NCBI RefSeq assembly: GCF_000027125.1
Contig: NC_017626.1
Direction: 5' to 3' (one strand)
DNA length: 64,000 bases
Source: Escherichia coli 042
GTDB taxonomy: Bacteria > Pseudomonadota > Gammaproteobacteria > Enterobacterales > Enterobacteriaceae
Shown piece after piece: positions 8,531 through 19,545 of this stretch (position 1 is the first letter of the stretch; every line of letters starts with the position of its first letter). The notes beneath the pieces are model-generated. The model did no database searches. It was not told where the DNA came from and saw nothing but the letters and a program-made list of their open reading frames with translations. Position numbers and translations under genes: made by a program.

Positions 8531-8591
8531 TTTCACTTAACGCATTGATTTAATTAAATGATTTGCACTACAAAAAGTGCCATAAATCGCA

Positions 8592-8650
8592 AAATGACTA
8601 CACCAGTGACTACACCGTTCGGTGCACTGTATGAAACAACGTGGAACAAA
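8592..8650. promoter_or_regulatory. arm-type repeat block (GACTACACC x2), homologous to block near attR
   Basis: atGACTACACCagtGACTACACCg plus shared flanking motifs, matching 19391..19460. Confidence 0.5.
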
Positions 8651-8929
8651 TAGACACAAGAAATATACAGGCGGGTCATCTTTCCAGGGGGAAGCGCGCT
8701 AATTCATGAGGGGCGTTAATGTTGATATGGGGATCCCCATAACGGGGCTACCGGATTTTTTTTCCGGTTAACTGTTAATCAGGCTGGTGGGCTTTACCTG
8801 TTTTGTAGGAGTGGTCATTATGACCATTCAGACAATGACCTTAATCAGAACTTTTCGCTAAAAAATGACGTTGGTCACGTCGTCCGGAAAGCACAAAATC
8901 CCGTCAATTTTTAATTAACGGTTAAACCG

Positions 8930-8990
8930 TCTTTTGTCACGGCGTGTCACTGGTTGTCACTCTCCGTCACGGTATGTCGCTACTCGTTAA
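8930..8990. repeat. helically phased TGTCAC/GTCAC array (about 5 copies)
   Basis: tgtcacggcgtgtcactggttgtcactctccgtcacggtatgtcgc, ~10–11 bp spacing; at 3' end of the leftmost island gene. Confidence 0.45.
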
Positions 8991-9268
8991 CGCCGTAACC
9001 GCTCCGGCTTCTTCCAGTGGTACGTAATTTTCTCCGTTTCCCGATACAGTGCCACGCGGCGATTGTAGGCCAGCATTTCAAGAACGCGGATCCGTATGTT
9101 GCGCATATCCACATCATTAAGCTGGATACCATCACGGCGCATCACCTCAGCAACCACACGCGCGTAATTTTCGGCGGTCACGCTGTCCGGCTGCGTGGCC
9201 TGTTCGTCATGCTGCTGGCTGATTCCGGTAACGCGGCGGATTAATCCCAGTAGTTCGGCTTCTGTCAT
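8987..9268 (-). CDS. hypothetical protein (93 aa)
   Basis: ORF 8987..9466 trimmed to Met MTEAELLG; upstream part of the track ORF is read-through of the cos repeat. Confidence 0.45.
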   Translation of the reverse strand: MTEAELLGLIRRVTGISQQHDEQATQPDSVTAENYARVVAEVMRRDGIQLNDVDMRNIRIRVLEMLAYNRRVALYRETEKITYHWKKPERLRR

Positions 9269-9301
9269 TGTGCCCCCATCGCTCTGATAGTCTGGTGTCG
9301 T

Positions 9302-9365
9302 CGGGTCCTTCCTGGAATTATGGCCCGTTACGGGGCGGCGACCTCGCGCGTTTTCACTATTTATG
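9302..9365 (+). other. lambda-type cos site, copy A (cosN GGGCGGCGACCT at 9333..9344)
   Basis: cgggtccttcc...gttacg|GGGCGGCGACCT|cgcgcgttttcactatttatgaaaattttt matches remembered lambda cosQ–cosN–left-end sequence. Confidence 0.75.
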
Positions 9366-9547
9366 AAAATTTTTCGGGATCCATGTCCGGTTTCTCTGCA
9401 AGTTAACCATATGAAAAATATAAAAACATGCTTTCCATGAACCGGACATGCGCAAAAAACAGACACTAAAACCGGACATCGAACCAGTTAACCGAAAGTG
9501 TGCACAAATCACATGCATTGCTGCGAGTGATTAACAAGTTATCGGCT

Positions 9548-9982
9548 TTACTGTTCTGTATCGGCTGATTGCTCCATGCTGGCACGGCGAACGCTTATGG
9601 CATGACGCCACCCAGCCAGAAAGCCAGCCATTTTATTTCGTGCCTTGCTCACATCTTCCGGTGAATAGCCGTAAATCTGCAAACCTTCATCAAATCGATG
9701 TTCTGTTTCTTCACTGGAGTACTCGTCACGCTCAGATGAAAGCAGCCTGGCAAACATAATTTTTTCCAGCGCACTGGTTTCTACGTGATATCTGATGGTC
9801 TCAAGACGGCTTTTACCTGAAGACCAAAGCAATGTATGCCCGATGTGATAACCGCCAGACTTTCCGCGATCCGCATTAAGATACGGCATCCCCTGTTTGG
9901 TCCATGCGCGAATAGTGGTTCTGTTAACCTTGAAATGTTCAGCTATTTCCTGCTGACTTACAAAACAAGCTTTATCAATCAT
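9548..9982 (-). CDS. Nu1-like small terminase homolog (N-terminal HTH); possible packaging-redirecting protein
   Basis: 144 aa; VSQQEIAEHFKVNRTTIRAWTKQGMP resembles lambda Nu1 VNKKQLADIFGASIRTIQNWQEQGMP; flanked by cos copies. Confidence 0.7.
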   Translation of the reverse strand: MIDKACFVSQQEIAEHFKVNRTTIRAWTKQGMPYLNADRGKSGGYHIGHTLLWSSGKSRLETIRYHVETSALEKIMFARLLSSERDEYSSEETEHRFDEGLQIYGYSPEDVSKARNKMAGFLAGWRHAISVRRASMEQSADTEQ

Positions 9983-10050
9983 AATGTTACCTTAACTGCA
10001 TGGTTAAATATTAATCAAGTGGTGGTGGTGTCACCTTCACGGAAAAACGT

Positions 10051-10114
10051 CATAAATAGCGAAAACCCGCGAGGTCGCCGCCCCGTAACGGGCCATAATT
10101 CCAGGAAGGACCCG
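10051..10114 (-). other. lambda-type cos site, copy B (cosN at 10072..10083), inverted relative to copy A
   Basis: Reverse complement is cgggtccttcctggaattatggcccgttacgGGGCGGCGACCTcgcgggttttcgctatttatg; ~90 bp upstream of the Nu1-like start. Confidence 0.75.
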
Positions 10115-10117
10115 TAA

Positions 10118-10138
10118 AAAAGCCGGATTTCTCCGGCC
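10118..10138 (-). terminator. rho-independent terminator after the 137-aa gene
   Basis: Minus strand gccggagaaatccggc followed by T-run; same hairpin recurs near 12390 and 12759. Confidence 0.6.
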
Positions 10139-10143
10139 TTGTC

Positions 10144-10557
10144 TCAGATGTTTTTCAGTATGCGATCGATGTCGCCGTCATCGCCCTGGTTTCTGCCATC
10201 GTATGCCATGCCAGCTGATACGGCTTGCGGGCTGTGCATGTCCATAAAGTTTTCAAAGGCTGCGGTAAGTTCCGGCGCAACCTTCGGACGTTCCTGCTCT
10301 ATGGTCATGCTAAGGATGCTTTTAGCCGTACCAACATCGATACAAGGCACGTTTGCCATTGCACGCAACAGCGGCTGATAGTCTTTATGCTCATGAAGCG
10401 CCATAATCGCATCAGCGCGCGGCTTGTCCTGCTCTTCCAGTTTGTTTAGTTGATGTACGGCCTCATAGGTTGATAAACCTCTGTCAGCCATTGCCCGCGC
10501 TTCGACTTTAAATTTACTCGCCAGCGGTAGCGTCATGATGCTTTCATTCGTTGCCAT
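10144..10557 (-). CDS. hypothetical protein (137 aa), last gene of capsid operon
   Basis: ORF; tightly packed after the gpD-like gene. Confidence 0.5.
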   Translation of the reverse strand: MATNESIMTLPLASKFKVEARAMADRGLSTYEAVHQLNKLEEQDKPRADAIMALHEHKDYQPLLRAMANVPCIDVGTAKSILSMTIEQERPKVAPELTAAFENFMDMHSPQAVSAGMAYDGRNQGDDGDIDRILKNI

Positions 10558-10569
10558 CGTTCCCCCTGC

Positions 10570-10905
10570 TTATCGGGCCAGCGGCTGAACGGATACGCCG
10601 GAACCCGCAAAGGCGGCGCATTTTTTCGCATCGGTGTCGACGCTCTCAGGCCAGTTAACGGCGGCAATATTGAATATCCCCGTCTTGTAACACTGTGCTG
10701 ATTTCTGCTTTGACGTGTCCACAGGGTACGAGGTCAGATAAACAGCCTTGCCAGATTCCTGACCATCCCACGGCTTAAACTCGCCATTGTCTGCCAGCAT
10801 CAGCGGGGTAAATTCCTGAATAACGCCAGCATCAGCGGCAAAATGTACCAACGTCGTGGATACCTGCTGACTGCCTGCAAATAACTCAATGTATGGAGTG
10901 TCCAT
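10570..10905 (-). CDS. head decoration protein, lambda gpD-like
   Basis: 111 aa; TPLMLADNGEFKPWDG...KTGIFNIAAVNWPESVDTDAKKCAAFAGSGVSVQ parallels lambda gpD (110 aa). Confidence 0.72.
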   Translation of the reverse strand: MDTPYIELFAGSQQVSTTLVHFAADAGVIQEFTPLMLADNGEFKPWDGQESGKAVYLTSYPVDTSKQKSAQCYKTGIFNIAAVNWPESVDTDAKKCAAFAGSGVSVQPLAR

Positions 10906-10917
10906 AGAATCCCCCCG

Positions 10918-11973
10918 TTAACCAATTTTGACGGTAACAAATTTGCGAATATCTGCCGGTACCGGCTGCGGTGCACTGTGTGTCTGCACGTACTCAATCG
11001 CCGGATCGCCGTCCTCAATCCAGTTTTTCGGGTAAAACATGTTTTGTGTTGCGCCCGTTCTTACCGCTTCCTGATCCATTATCGCACCATAGGCCACCAG
11101 CCCTTTATTGTTGGTGTTACCCAGGACCAGCAAATCAGGCTCAAGGAAATATTTTTCGGTACCATCGCTGTCAGTGTATTTGCCGGAATAGACGATAAGG
11201 GCCAGATCACCAAGATAGCCTTTAAAGCTCACCACTTCGCCCAGGTTTTTACAGGCCAGTTCGGCGGCGGATTCTGAACCACGGGAAAGATCGTACAGCT
11301 CACGGAATTTTTTAAAGCTGCGTAATGTGCGCCATACCTCAGCGCCCATAATCATGACGTTTGCGGGGCAACCAGCCTGATCAGCATAAAGCTCGATGTC
11401 ATAGATTGGGTCGTGCATGTCTTTATCCTGCTCGGACCATTTTTTACCCTTGGCCTGCTCTATGATGCAGTTTTCCGGTATTTTCCAGTCGATTTCATAG
11501 CGTTCTATGCCTTCGCCCTCAATGATGTTTTTTCCGGTCGTTACCGCATTCACCGCCAGCCATTCCACGCGTGCCTTAATGGCGTTTATCTGGCGGCGCA
11601 TGTTGCCAGTAATCAGGCGCATACGGCGATAGGTAGGGTCGTTAAGCTGTGCCGGATCTTCTCCAGCCATGCGCATGATGGTTTTCGTTGGATCGATTTC
11701 GTGCTTTGGCTTCATGTAGCCAGGTTTGATTGTGCTGGTTTCGTACCCTTTATCGCGCTGAACCTGGCTACCCACCATAGGCGAACAAAACGCCGACATG
11801 GTGACTTCTTCAATGTCCAGGGTATCCAGCATGATGTTTTGCGTGCTGAATGTCGCCACGTTCGGGAAAAACAGCGTGGTAAACAGAGGGCTGAATTTAA
11901 AATCCGCAATATCCCCGCGATTCAGGTACATGAAAAGCTGGTTAGTGTTAAGTGCCGTTGCTTTGCCTGCCAT
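10918..11973 (-). CDS. major capsid protein, lambda gpE family
   Basis: 351 aa (lambda gpE is 341 aa); adjacent to gpD-like gene. Confidence 0.75.
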   Translation of the reverse strand: MAGKATALNTNQLFMYLNRGDIADFKFSPLFTTLFFPNVATFSTQNIMLDTLDIEEVTMSAFCSPMVGSQVQRDKGYETSTIKPGYMKPKHEIDPTKTIMRMAGEDPAQLNDPTYRRMRLITGNMRRQINAIKARVEWLAVNAVTTGKNIIEGEGIERYEIDWKIPENCIIEQAKGKKWSEQDKDMHDPIYDIELYADQAGCPANVMIMGAEVWRTLRSFKKFRELYDLSRGSESAAELACKNLGEVVSFKGYLGDLALIVYSGKYTDSDGTEKYFLEPDLLVLGNTNNKGLVAYGAIMDQEAVRTGATQNMFYPKNWIEDGDPAIEYVQTHSAPQPVPADIRKFVTVKIG

Positions 11974-12212
11974 TATTCACCCCCATAATTTTTATGCATC
12001 CCAAGCGCCGCAAGTAAATAAGAGCGTACAAGTGAACCTATCGACGGCTCCGGCGTCATCAGCGGATCCAGTCCAGCCGCAACGCCAGCTTCATAGTTTT
12101 TTTTGTGGCGCTGCTTGAGCACCTCCACGATTTCGGGGCTTATGTACACCGAAACACCGCCTTTTTTCTCTTCAGCCATAGTAAGAAATTCCTCTTCGAC
12201 TAAAAAAATCAT
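11973..12212 (-). CDS. hypothetical protein (79 aa, or 68 aa from internal Met), first gene of capsid operon
   Basis: ORF; stop overlaps capsid start (ATGA). Confidence 0.45.
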   Translation of the reverse strand: MIFLVEEEFLTMAEEKKGGVSVYISPEIVEVLKQRHKKNYEAGVAAGLDPLMTPEPSIGSLVRSYLLAALGMHKNYGGE

Positions 12213-12235
12213 AACTGGATGTTTATCCAGTTATG
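12208..12235. promoter_or_regulatory. 12-bp inverted repeat (tcataactggat-gttt-atccagttatga) overlapping capsid-operon start codon
   Basis: Perfect 12-bp arms with 4-bp spacer; AT-rich region with further palindrome ttgcattttatgcaa just upstream. Confidence 0.5.
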
Positions 12236-12344
12236 ATTATAATCAGAATTGCATTTTATGCAATGATATTGAGTTATGTTGCAAATTATGAAATGATTAT
12301 CCCGATCACGAACGCCAGTGCATCCAAAAACCTCATATGCAAAA

Positions 12345-12410
12345 GCCCGATAAGAACCCTCTGACCTTATCGGGCTTTTTTTGGGCGCAAAAAAGCCGGA
12401 TTGCTCCGGC
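12345..12410. terminator. tandem hairpins (bidirectional terminator region, approximate)
   Basis: gcccgataag...cttatcgggc + T7, then aaaaaagccggattgctccggc. Confidence 0.55.
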
Positions 12411-12430
12411 TATGTGTGCTGTGTGCTGGC

Positions 12431-12655: not shown

Positions 12656-12758
12656 TGTTTTTTTCCTCTGTTGTGTCTGTTTGTTTCAGATAGTAACTAT
12701 GCCTGACCGTGACGAAAACCCGGTAATGCGCCATACCGTTTCAACTGGTGCAAAAAAA

Positions 12759-12774
12759 GCCGGATTTCTCCGGC
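12759..12774 (-). terminator. rho-independent terminator after PerC-like gene
   Basis: aaaaaaagccggatttctccggc. Confidence 0.6.
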
Positions 12775-12781
12775 TGTTTGA

Positions 12782-18140: not shown

Positions 18141-19370
18141 TTATTTTCTTCTGGCTACTGGTAGCGTGGTTACGTTTTCATGTGTTCCCGCCAGTATCCC
18201 TAACCGCTCCGTCCACATATCCAGCGCATTGCGTTTAGCATCCAGATAACGGGAATGATTATAAACTCGCTGCATTCCTGGCATCTGGTGGCCTGTAAGC
18301 TGCTCCACGACATGCGGATCAACGCCTAAATCGTTCAGCATGGTTGTAAAGGTGCGCCGGATGTCATGCAGTGACCAGTGAGGATGATTAAGCCTCCTGT
18401 GCGCTAATCTTCCATACTGCGATACGCTGGCCTCCTGTTTCACTTCCCCCAGCAATAAGCCCGTGTGCCTGTTCTGCTCCACCAGCTGCGTGACGAACGG
18501 CAGGATCGCTTCCGGTATGGGCCGGAATATTGCGACCTTCGTTTTGCTGTGCTCCTTCGGAACGGTCCATAGCATTTCCGTAAAATCCCACTCCCCGATC
18601 TCCGATAACCTCAGTTCTACCGTTCTGGCTCCGAAGACAATCAGGAGGCGGATTAACGCGACGTAGTAAGGGGAGAATATTTTTTTGTCCAGTGCCTGCA
18701 ATAATTCGCCAAGTTCTTTGTTACTTAAGACACGTTCGCTTATATCCGGTTTTTTCCCAACGTCCGCCACGTTCAGATCGTCCAGAACGTTGCTGATTGC
18801 ATAGCGCCGCCTACGGCAGAACTTAAGCGCCTGTTTGCACGCCTGTAGCACGAATCCGGCAGTAACAGGCGTTCGCTTTGCCACCTGGTCAAAACAGGCC
18901 AGCCAGTGCCGTAGCTCGCATTTATCCAGCGGCATAGCACCAATCTGCTGTATTACGTGATTATTAAGTCGCCTTTTCAGGGCGATATAATCCACGCGGT
19001 TTTCCTTTACGTAATACTCAAGCCAGTAGGTGAGCGCATCGCCAACCGTTACCGGCTTTAACGCTTCCTGTACGGTGTAATTAAGCTCATGACGTGGATT
19101 TTTCCCCTCTGCCAGCCATGCGCGACACTGGGCGGCTTTTTCCCTGGCTGATTTCAGGCTCAGATCAGGATAACTTCCCAGCTTAATGCGTTCGGGTCGT
19201 GTCTCCCTTCCCGTTCCGGCCCTGTATGTGAAATACCAGGTCAATTTCCCTGATGTTAAATATTTCACGCTCAGGTTTCCGCCATCACTATAAAACGTGT
19301 TTTTCTCCGCTGGCTTACCATGAAGTTTCCTTAGCAAGGTATCGCTCAGTTTGTTCATTGCTCTGCTCAC
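18141..19370 (-). CDS. int: tyrosine site-specific integrase (P4-like, N-terminal arm-binding domain)
   Basis: 409 aa; C-terminal HDIRRT...GHQ...VYNHSRY catalytic motifs; adjacent to attR. Confidence 0.9.
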   Translation of the reverse strand: MSRAMNKLSDTLLRKLHGKPAEKNTFYSDGGNLSVKYLTSGKLTWYFTYRAGTGRETRPERIKLGSYPDLSLKSAREKAAQCRAWLAEGKNPRHELNYTVQEALKPVTVGDALTYWLEYYVKENRVDYIALKRRLNNHVIQQIGAMPLDKCELRHWLACFDQVAKRTPVTAGFVLQACKQALKFCRRRRYAISNVLDDLNVADVGKKPDISERVLSNKELGELLQALDKKIFSPYYVALIRLLIVFGARTVELRLSEIGEWDFTEMLWTVPKEHSKTKVAIFRPIPEAILPFVTQLVEQNRHTGLLLGEVKQEASVSQYGRLAHRRLNHPHWSLHDIRRTFTTMLNDLGVDPHVVEQLTGHQMPGMQRVYNHSRYLDAKRNALDMWTERLGILAGTHENVTTLPVARRK

Positions 19371-19390: not shown

Positions 19391-19460
19391 AAAAGTGACT
19401 ACACCAGTGACTACACCGATCGTTGCACAAAGGGCTACAACGTGAAACAAGCTGGAACAA
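19391..19460. promoter_or_regulatory. arm-type repeat block (GACTACACC x2) between int start and attR
   Basis: gtGACTACACCagtGACTACACCg at 19397..19417, homologous to 8592..8650. Confidence 0.5.
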
Positions 19461-19545
19461 GGAAAATCACAAATCTGTTGATAATCAAAAACATAATGCA
19501 CAGCCTGAAACATTATGAAACAGCAAAAAACACCAAATGATAAAA

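Follow-up and report, generated by a model that had tools for sequence, protein, structure and literature searches.

Two small late genes of a satellite island, p137 and p93, were analyzed in a 64,000-nucleotide (nt) stretch of Escherichia coli 042 DNA (contig NC_017626.1), which is called the window throughout. The island is a phage-inducible chromosomal island (PICI) of the EcCICFT073 type, and the two genes encode proteins of 137 and 93 amino acids (aa). We found that p137 is homologous to the C-terminal scaffolding segment of the phage protein gpC/Nu3 and that p93 is an orphan gene which closes the conserved part of the island. Our favored explanation, held with moderate confidence, is that p137 is a cut-down internal scaffold and that p93 is a satellite-specific late protein with a generic role.

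Two conserved genes beside the cos sites

A preliminary description of this DNA, made from the letters alone, had placed the two open reading frames (ORFs) immediately outside two cos copies. Their coordinates, the PGAP annotation and a 78-nt repeat bear this out. The PGAP annotation was taken from a near-identical island in a 99.8%-identical E. coli genome, in which both ORFs carry the same boundaries. A longer, 159-aa reading of p93 from a GTG at 9466 was rejected, as it crosses cos and its start is not conserved.

Both ORFs were confirmed to be real, conserved and under purifying selection. The ratio of nonsynonymous to synonymous polymorphism (pN/pS) in the annotated frame was 0.30 for p137 (27 distinct alleles) and 0.26 for p93 (48 distinct alleles), and it exceeded 1.2 in the antisense and shifted frames. 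Intact full-length copies were present in 43 (p137) and 75 (p93) sampled loci, and both genes have good ribosome-binding sites. One might regard one or both ORFs as decaying, functionless remnants, since no phenotype has been published and p137 is absent from a few islands. Given selection that is confined to the annotated frame, the intact copies and the ribosome-binding sites, this explanation is highly improbable.

p137 and the C-terminal segment of gpC/Nu3

In the PHROGs database, p137 matched phrog_1999, an unannotated family, and positions 496 to 567 (of 583) of phrog_53, the head maturation protease family (E 5.8e-9). BLASTP aligned residues 49 to 131 of p137 with residues 416 to 493 of the gpC/Nu3 homologue of CFT073 prophage 4, a 501-aa S49 protease/scaffold, at 37% identity over 83 aa (E 3e-10). 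EcCICFT073 has this prophage as its natural helper. Among 50,697 phage records searched by tblastn, only PhiR12 and PhiR5 phages were matched, within features annotated as Nu3 (E 4e-5). Since the N-terminal half of p137 aligns to the preceding gpC repeat, p137 corresponds to roughly the last 135 residues of gpC/Nu3.

Profile-profile comparison of p137 and gpC by hhalign, in which a 44%-identical p137 orthologue was included, gave a probability of 95.1% (E 2.9e-8). The elements conserved between the two are a pair of helical repeats of the form xxRIMAxxEAxG...LAxxPxxTVxxAxxIL, followed by a C-terminal tail. When gpC was searched against the window with default tblastn, p137 was missed because of seeding; with a word size of 2 it was found at E 9e-8. 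Like Nu3 (isoelectric point [pI] 4.5), p137 is acidic (pI 5.1), and its AlphaFold2 (AF2) model consists entirely of helices, except for disorder ahead of the last one. A gpFI-like identity was rejected, as BLASTP against the gpFI of prophage 4 gave E 9.2. No match to p137 was found in Pfam, NCBIfam or PADLOC, and sequence and profile searches of PDB returned only noise.

The resemblance to the gpC/Nu3 proteins of 21, PhiR12 and CFT073 prophage 4 thus extends over the last 85 to 135 or so residues and includes the location of the gene beside homologues of D and E. The differences are that p137 stands alone, without a protease domain, and that the island order is E-D-p137, whereas the phage order is C/Nu3-D-E. 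The island contains no S49 domain, and p137 is neither encoded within an S49 prohead protease gene nor an in-frame C-terminal product of one.

By gene order (c1499 capsid, c1500 decoration, c1503 rppA), p137 is the orthologue of c1501 of CFT073, with 131 of 137 residues identical. Many members of the p137 family carry the NCBI name "phage head-tail connector protein"; among their phage relatives, the names in use are "S49 family peptidase" and "head-tail preconnector protein GP5". The word "connector" was probably mis-propagated from the "preconnector" label of the gpC relatives. The link between p137 and gpC is therefore implicit in the NCBI annotation, though the connector name misleads.

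The head operon of the island

The genes next to p137 encode a gpE-like major capsid protein and a gpD-like head decoration protein (Table 1). The decoration gene and p137 are separated by 12 nt within the head-gene cluster. The order capsid-decoration-p137 was found in 43 of the 48 loci of the IMG/VR database that show capsid and decoration genes, and one more, truncated locus also carries p137. The best phage matches of the island capsid protein, decoration protein and p137, at 47%, 44% and 37% identity, respectively, all fall in one phage group.

Because a terminator-like hairpin directly follows the p137 stop codon, the operon formed by the 68-aa gene, the capsid gene, the decoration gene and p137 appears to end before cos. 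This hairpin belongs to a family with the consensus AGCCGGAG(A/C)AATCCGGCT followed by a T run, of which the minus strand has three near-identical copies (10113-10142, 12386-12415 and 12750-12779). The copies follow p137, a 74-aa gene and a PerC-like gene, and a terminator scan scored the two sister hairpins (12394-12411 and 12758-12775) as terminators. Within the head-gene cluster, p137 alone is followed by a terminator. The late region is therefore divided into separate transcription units.

The homology to the gpC/Nu3 C terminus, together with a capsid operon that ends before cos, argues that p137 is a head-assembly scaffold-type protein and not a terminase partner. The preliminary description had suggested packaging-related roles for both proteins on the basis of their position. 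For p137, the part of this proposal that concerns virion morphogenesis held up, for a reason other than proximity to cos; the part that concerns terminase did not.

Several further observations were made in this region. The first cistron of the operon was read mechanically as an ORF of 79 aa (11973-12212), and PGAP and the related loci favor 68 aa. In related loci this gene is always upstream of the capsid gene, and it occurs in two allelic forms (about 69% identity) that are shuffled among islands. Directly upstream of it, at 12207-12238 on the minus strand, lies a hairpin with a 14-bp stem and a T run, which could be the point where entry into the operon is regulated or anti-terminated. In one island (L060, 4657-5001), a 114-aa AlpA-like helix-turn-helix (HTH) protein is encoded at the place of p137, and the capsid/decoration pair is more divergent (about 55% identity); in two others (L053 and L072), p137 is deleted.

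p93 as the last late gene of different satellite modules

The CFT073 gene that follows rppA is, by gene order, orthologous to p93 (85 of 93 residues identical). The N-terminal half of p93 is acidic and its C-terminal half is basic (pI 10.3), and the C-terminal sequence YxWKKPERLRR is invariant. The AF2 model (pLDDT 70) has helices at residues 3-14, 28-45 and 52-82, plus a basic tail. No match to p93 was found in Pfam, NCBIfam or PADLOC, nor in PDB with the single sequence or with a profile; Foldseek against PDB and BFVD gave nothing below E 0.7, and tblastn against all 50,697 phage records gave nothing below E 0.6. Relatedness to lambda W, FI, FII or Nu1 was rejected at hhalign probabilities of 0.06 to 0.3%. 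The family is narrow: a representative library gave, apart from a spurious repeat protein, 38 clusters at 50% identity, in which the most distant member is at 44%, and a search of 5.8 billion proteins found only near-identical E. coli copies.

The preliminary description had reported no recognizable motif in either protein and had proposed structure prediction and remote homology as a check. Its statement falls for p137, in which the gpC/Nu3 repeats were recognized by remote homology; the structure models of both proteins found no match.

The genetic context of p93 was surveyed in 80 IMG/VR loci. In 49 loci the layout was capsid-decoration-(p137)-cos-X-cos-p93, some with a cos or p137 that was not detected. 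Between the cos sites, these 49 loci carried rppA (16 loci), a gene for an unrelated 180-aa small terminase subunit (TerS) (28 loci) or no gene (5 loci). A further 25 loci, including the prototype EcCIEDL933, were capsid-forming PICIs (cf-PICIs), in which p93 starts 14 nt after the gene for the large terminase subunit (TerL). The remaining 6 loci had a protease-capsid fusion upstream of p93, and no cosN was found there. In a fifth module type (L088 and L089), the gene of a TerS-like HTH protein is followed immediately by that of a 44%-identical p93 relative, which comes last. At least five types of satellite module thus have p93 as their final conserved late gene, and sequence conservation ends exactly at its stop codon.

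In EcCIEDL933, the p93 family member is the 93-aa product of the post-terL gene EDL933_RS08745 (WP_000133425.1), the last late gene before phoQ as p93 is the last late gene here; it follows an HK97-type TerS/TerL module instead of cos-rppA-cos. Two of the fusion loci (L010, 3858-5747; L066, 1725-3614) encode a 629-aa protein in which a ClpP-type protease is fused to a capsid protein, in a module that ends with the p93 gene. In L088 and L089, the module encodes a 223-aa protein that resembles a protease, a 678-aa protein, part of which is transglycosylase-like, and a 175-aa protein whose N-terminal HTH resembles that of TerS/Rpp.

We found that 5 of 38 p93 alleles are identical across module types (RppA-type and TerS-type islands). 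The mean identity of p93 was 0.91 within module types and 0.90 between them, and the alleles did not co-vary with the adjacent Rpp or TerS type. Since identical alleles adjoin RppA, an unrelated TerS or no such gene, p93 is not a specificity partner of Rpp, TerS or cos. It is tied to neither cos nor Rpp specificity, and its role would be generic.

A role of both proteins as packaging accessories, acting with terminase or Rpp at cos in terminase interaction, packaging interference or head completion, is unlikely. Both ORFs are immediately beside the two cos sites, and in most module types p93 directly follows the gene for RppA, TerS, the cf-PICI TerL or the TerS-like HTH protein, an arrangement which still allows a packaging role for p93 and counts to that extent against our explanation. 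According to a preprint on cf-PICIs (10.1101/2022.09.08.507074), transfer of EcCIEDL933 drops severely when "hypothetical gene 1792" of its packaging module is mutated; this gene is no more than a possible p93 orthologue, as the preprint and later papers give no correspondence and RefSeq lists new locus tags only. However, p137 is homologous to a scaffold and not to FI, and a terminator separates it from cos and rpp. p93 is without similarity to lambda W, FI, FII and Nu1, the small head-completion and packaging proteins, the same p93 allele can be paired with different Rpp or TerS proteins or stand without one, and p93 also follows the protease-capsid fusion where no cosN was found. In addition, among the post-ori genes of EcCICFT073 expressed singly, only c1503 inhibits lambda (PMC6739421). 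A specific role of p93 at terminase or cos, as first proposed, was thus left without support.

It was also considered that p93 may be a regulatory or recombination-related DNA-binding protein of the island backbone (e.g., at attP/int or in late transcription) and not a virion or packaging factor. p93 is conserved whatever morphogenesis or packaging module the island carries, and its C-terminal half is basic. It is the gene nearest to attR, and in the excised circle it would lie upstream of, and co-oriented with, attP and int. In the window island, its stop codon is followed directly by a GTCAC array with 10-bp phasing, which fits as well. Against this, no HTH or Xis-like signature was found in p93, the downstream repeats are not conserved among islands, p93 is translationally adjacent to TerL in cf-PICIs and so expressed with late genes, and AlpA is already known as the excision and induction factor (PMC6092414). 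We give this explanation a low probability.

The array itself consists of five GTCAC/GTCGC motifs at exact 10-bp spacing (8936-8980). It is shared by no islands but those of the same tqsA type (L008); at this place the sequence is unrelated in CFT073, EDL933 and other islands. The array was rejected as a conserved p93 binding site, as the region varies between islands.

The cos sites and rppA

The two cos copies form a 78-nt inverted repeat, and its arms are 91% complementary. The window contains exactly two instances of the 16-nt cosN core GGGCGGCGACCTCGCG, at 9333 (plus strand) and 10068 (minus strand), and no occurrence is expected by chance. p93 and p137 lie 34 nt and 30 nt, respectively, outside the repeat arms. 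Two lambda-like cosQ-cosN sites flank rpp, and both copies align to the CFT073 cos regions. The preliminary description had taken the cos copies as direct repeats around a small terminase gene. The copies have opposite orientations, and the protein between them is RppA (redirecting phage packaging), as shown by its match to RppC (PDB 6HLK) and its near-identity to c1503 (Table 1). The cos1 and cos2 sites of EcCICFT073 and the Rpp mechanism have been published (PMC6092414, PMC6739421, PMC9026076).

Copy 1 is oriented towards the 3' end of rppA and includes a phage-type cosB with ATGTCCGG/CCGGACAT repeats at 9383-9390, 9442-9449 and 9472-9479. Over 179 nt, this region and the complete cos that immediately precedes Nu1 in PhiR12 phages have 93% identity, and EcCICFT073 holds the same sequence. 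A published comparison with lambda and phi80 recognized no phage cosB in either island cos. Copy 1 probably corresponds to "cos2" of EcCICFT073 and, judging from its similarity to the phage site, may serve PhiR12-like phages as a packaging site that is helper-cognate and independent of Rpp. Copy 2 lies directly upstream of rppA and is co-oriented with it, a layout like that of lambda cos-Nu1 (described in PMC9026076), and is probably the Rpp-responsive "cos1".

In L002 (10539-11081; O157 ATCC 43889) and in the 28 IMG/VR loci with TerS, the 180-aa TerS replaces rppA between the same cos sites and flanking genes. The C-terminal half of this TerS is 48% identical to PhiR12 Nu1, and its N-terminal DNA-binding part differs. 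Inspection of the 5 loci without a gene between the cos sites confirmed the absence of an rpp or terS ORF.

The island and its setting

The island is a satellite of about 11 kb (about 8.5 to 19.6 kb of the window) inserted in tqsA, and all of its genes are on the minus strand. Their order is integrase (18141-19370), AlpA-like HTH protein, RepA/primase, single-stranded DNA-binding protein, PerC-like protein, 74-aa protein and 68-aa protein, then gpE-like capsid protein, gpD-like decoration protein, p137, cos, the 144-aa HTH protein (RppA), the opposite-oriented cos and p93. After p93, about 320 nt of noncoding DNA lead to the attachment (att) repeat. The island has the backbone of a PICI, with an integrase, an AlpA-like regulator, a primase/RepA, flanking direct repeats and no tail or lysis genes. 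Because its 144-aa protein is RppA, the island is of the EcCICFT073 type.

EcCICFT073 has the same gene order (capsid c1499, decoration c1500, p137, cos, rppA, cos, p93), with identities of 96% for p137, 99% for RppA and 91% for p93. It differs in its integration site, as the close relatives in CFT073, O157 and EDL933 sit between roxA and phoQ. The features described in the text are listed in Table 1.

Table 1. Positions of p137, p93 and neighboring features of the island in the window
Feature	Position	Strand	Description
att direct repeats (D1)	8591-8666 and 19392-19467		76 nt, 76% identical; exact core GTGACTACACCAGTGACTACACCG; flank island in tqsA
p93	8987..9268	-	93-aa orphan late protein; last conserved island gene; phrog_1561; PGAP coding sequence
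cos copy 1	9302..9479	+	cosQ-cosN (9302-9379) and phage-type cosB; inverted repeats I1 and I18; cosN match
rppA	9548..9982	-	PDB 6HLK RppC, E 4.5e-31; 142/144 to CFT073 c1503
cos copy 2	10037..10114	-	cosQ-cosN; inverted repeat I1; cosN match
Rho-independent terminator-like hairpin	10113..10142	-	GCCGGAGAAATCCGGC, then T run; repeat family D2; read from sequence
p137	10144..10557	-	137-aa ORF; stand-alone homologue of 21/PhiR12-type gpC/Nu3 C-terminal scaffolding segment; c1501 orthologue
gpD-like head decoration protein	10570..10905	-	c1500 orthologue; phrog_49, E 1.5e-27; 44% to prophage 4 D
gpE-like major capsid protein	10918..11973	-	c1499 orthologue; phrog_29, E 1.5e-107; 45-47% to 21/PhiR12-type gpE
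68-aa protein	11973..12179	-	First cistron of head operon; phrog_3255; PGAP coding sequence; start MAEEKKGG

Published phenotypes and the weight of the evidence

The literature on EcCICFT073 that was examined assigns no function to c1501 or to the gene after rppA. In that work c1501 served only as the site of a marker insertion (PMC6092414). The preliminary description had stated that a deletion without effect on island transfer or helper titre would speak against its proposal. In part, such a result already exists: EcCICFT073 with c1501::tetA still transfers and still blocks lambda (PMC6092414), and the inhibition observed with single genes was due to c1503.

The c1501::tetA result weighs against our explanation as well, as do several others. 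Lambda packages EcCICFT073 into full-size capsids, and deletion of the capsid or decoration gene has no phenotype (PMC6092414). Confidence in the AF2 model of p137 is low (pLDDT 62), and no Foldseek match for it, in PDB or BFVD, was below E 0.7. p137 has no detectable similarity to lambda Nu3 itself. A 44%-identical p137 orthologue (L091) has lost the FExFMxxHSP tail motif, and BLASTP finds no gpC match for it; in some other islands p137 is missing or its place is taken by an AlpA-like gene. For p93, no homology or fold match was found, and the mechanism is conjecture. On the other hand, because lambda Nu3 is without the homologous segment, lambda would be a weak test of a capsid phenotype of p137.

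The retained segment of p137 could also serve interference. As a decoy, p137 would keep the capsid-binding end of the scaffold, compete with gpC/Nu3 for the helper capsid protein and poison prohead assembly or maturation. Consistent with this, p137 has kept the C-terminal repeats and tail without the protease domain, and the phages that match it most closely form the group of probable cognate helpers. A precedent may be found in the account of Dearborn et al. (2017) given in PMC6092414, in which CpmB of SaPI1 competes with the 80alpha scaffold through a shared C terminus. The inhibition of lambda by c1503 only (PMC6739421) argues against a decoy, but lambda, whose Nu3 lacks the segment, is a poor test here too. 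The cotranscription of p137 with the island capsid and decoration genes fits a constructive role, and we consider a decoy to be rather improbable.

Discussion

The satellite system described here is already known, and our additions are modest: c1501/p137 was annotated better, p93 was traced through the whole lineage, and 21/PhiR12-like phages were singled out as the helpers on which phenotypes should be sought. The homologies, gene order, operon boundaries, selection and distribution were demonstrated above; the binding partners and phenotypes considered below are those that we infer from this material.

p137 is cotranscribed with the genes for the gpE-like capsid and gpD-like decoration proteins of the island. 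As a cut-down internal scaffold, it would bind a gpE-type capsid protein, of the island or of the helper, through the conserved repeat and tail segment, by analogy with Nu3, which contacts E, B and C (PMC3224144). In the lambda precedents (PMC3224144), the scaffold binds capsid protein and portal, is found in proheads and leaves before the DNA is packaged. p137 may then chaperone or bias shell assembly, as Nu3 does in lambda and as the satellite scaffold CpmB does with its copy of the C terminus of the helper scaffold. The concept is the one known from SaPI1 CpmB and SaPIbov5 Ccm, in which a satellite scaffold end (CpmB) and a capsid homologue (Ccm) redirect helper capsid assembly. The likeness is a functional analogy only, a relationship in sequence is not expected, and no small capsids were observed when lambda was the helper of EcCICFT073 (PMC6092414). 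p137 has the C-terminal segment of a helper-type gpC, and capsid binding by this segment is putative.

In every module type of this PICI lineage, p93 is the final product of the late operon. Its invariant basic C-terminal tail might dock on a component common to all these satellites, either DNA or a host or helper factor, and this docking might serve a late, transfer-related step; our confidence in both proposals is low.

A bolder proposal, which we regard as quite doubtful, is that EcCICFT073-type PICIs carry a minimal shell kit made up of their own capsid and decoration proteins and of a mini-scaffold derived from Nu3. Given a helper of the 21, PhiR12 or CFT073 prophage 4 type and not lambda, the portal and protease of the helper would be the base on which the kit builds shells that are specific to the satellite and possibly smaller. 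p93 would be a late factor, not recognized before, that is universal in the enterobacterial PICI/cf-PICI lineage; efficient transfer would require it, and it might account for the gene 1792 phenotype. If the proposal is true, such islands would be an evolutionary intermediate between classical and capsid-forming PICIs.

The cos/Rpp cassette is a textbook case of packaging piracy, and the capsid-related genes next to it have no known role. Neither the p137 nor the p93 result alters the current understanding unless experiments yield a phenotype. With c1501/p137 as a scaffold homologue, the island would have three cooperating head-assembly parts and not two, and 21/PhiR12-like phages, not lambda, would be the helpers with which to seek a capsid phenotype. 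p93 is the one small gene common to classical, TerS-type and capsid-forming PICIs, and it could reveal a late transfer step that they have in common.

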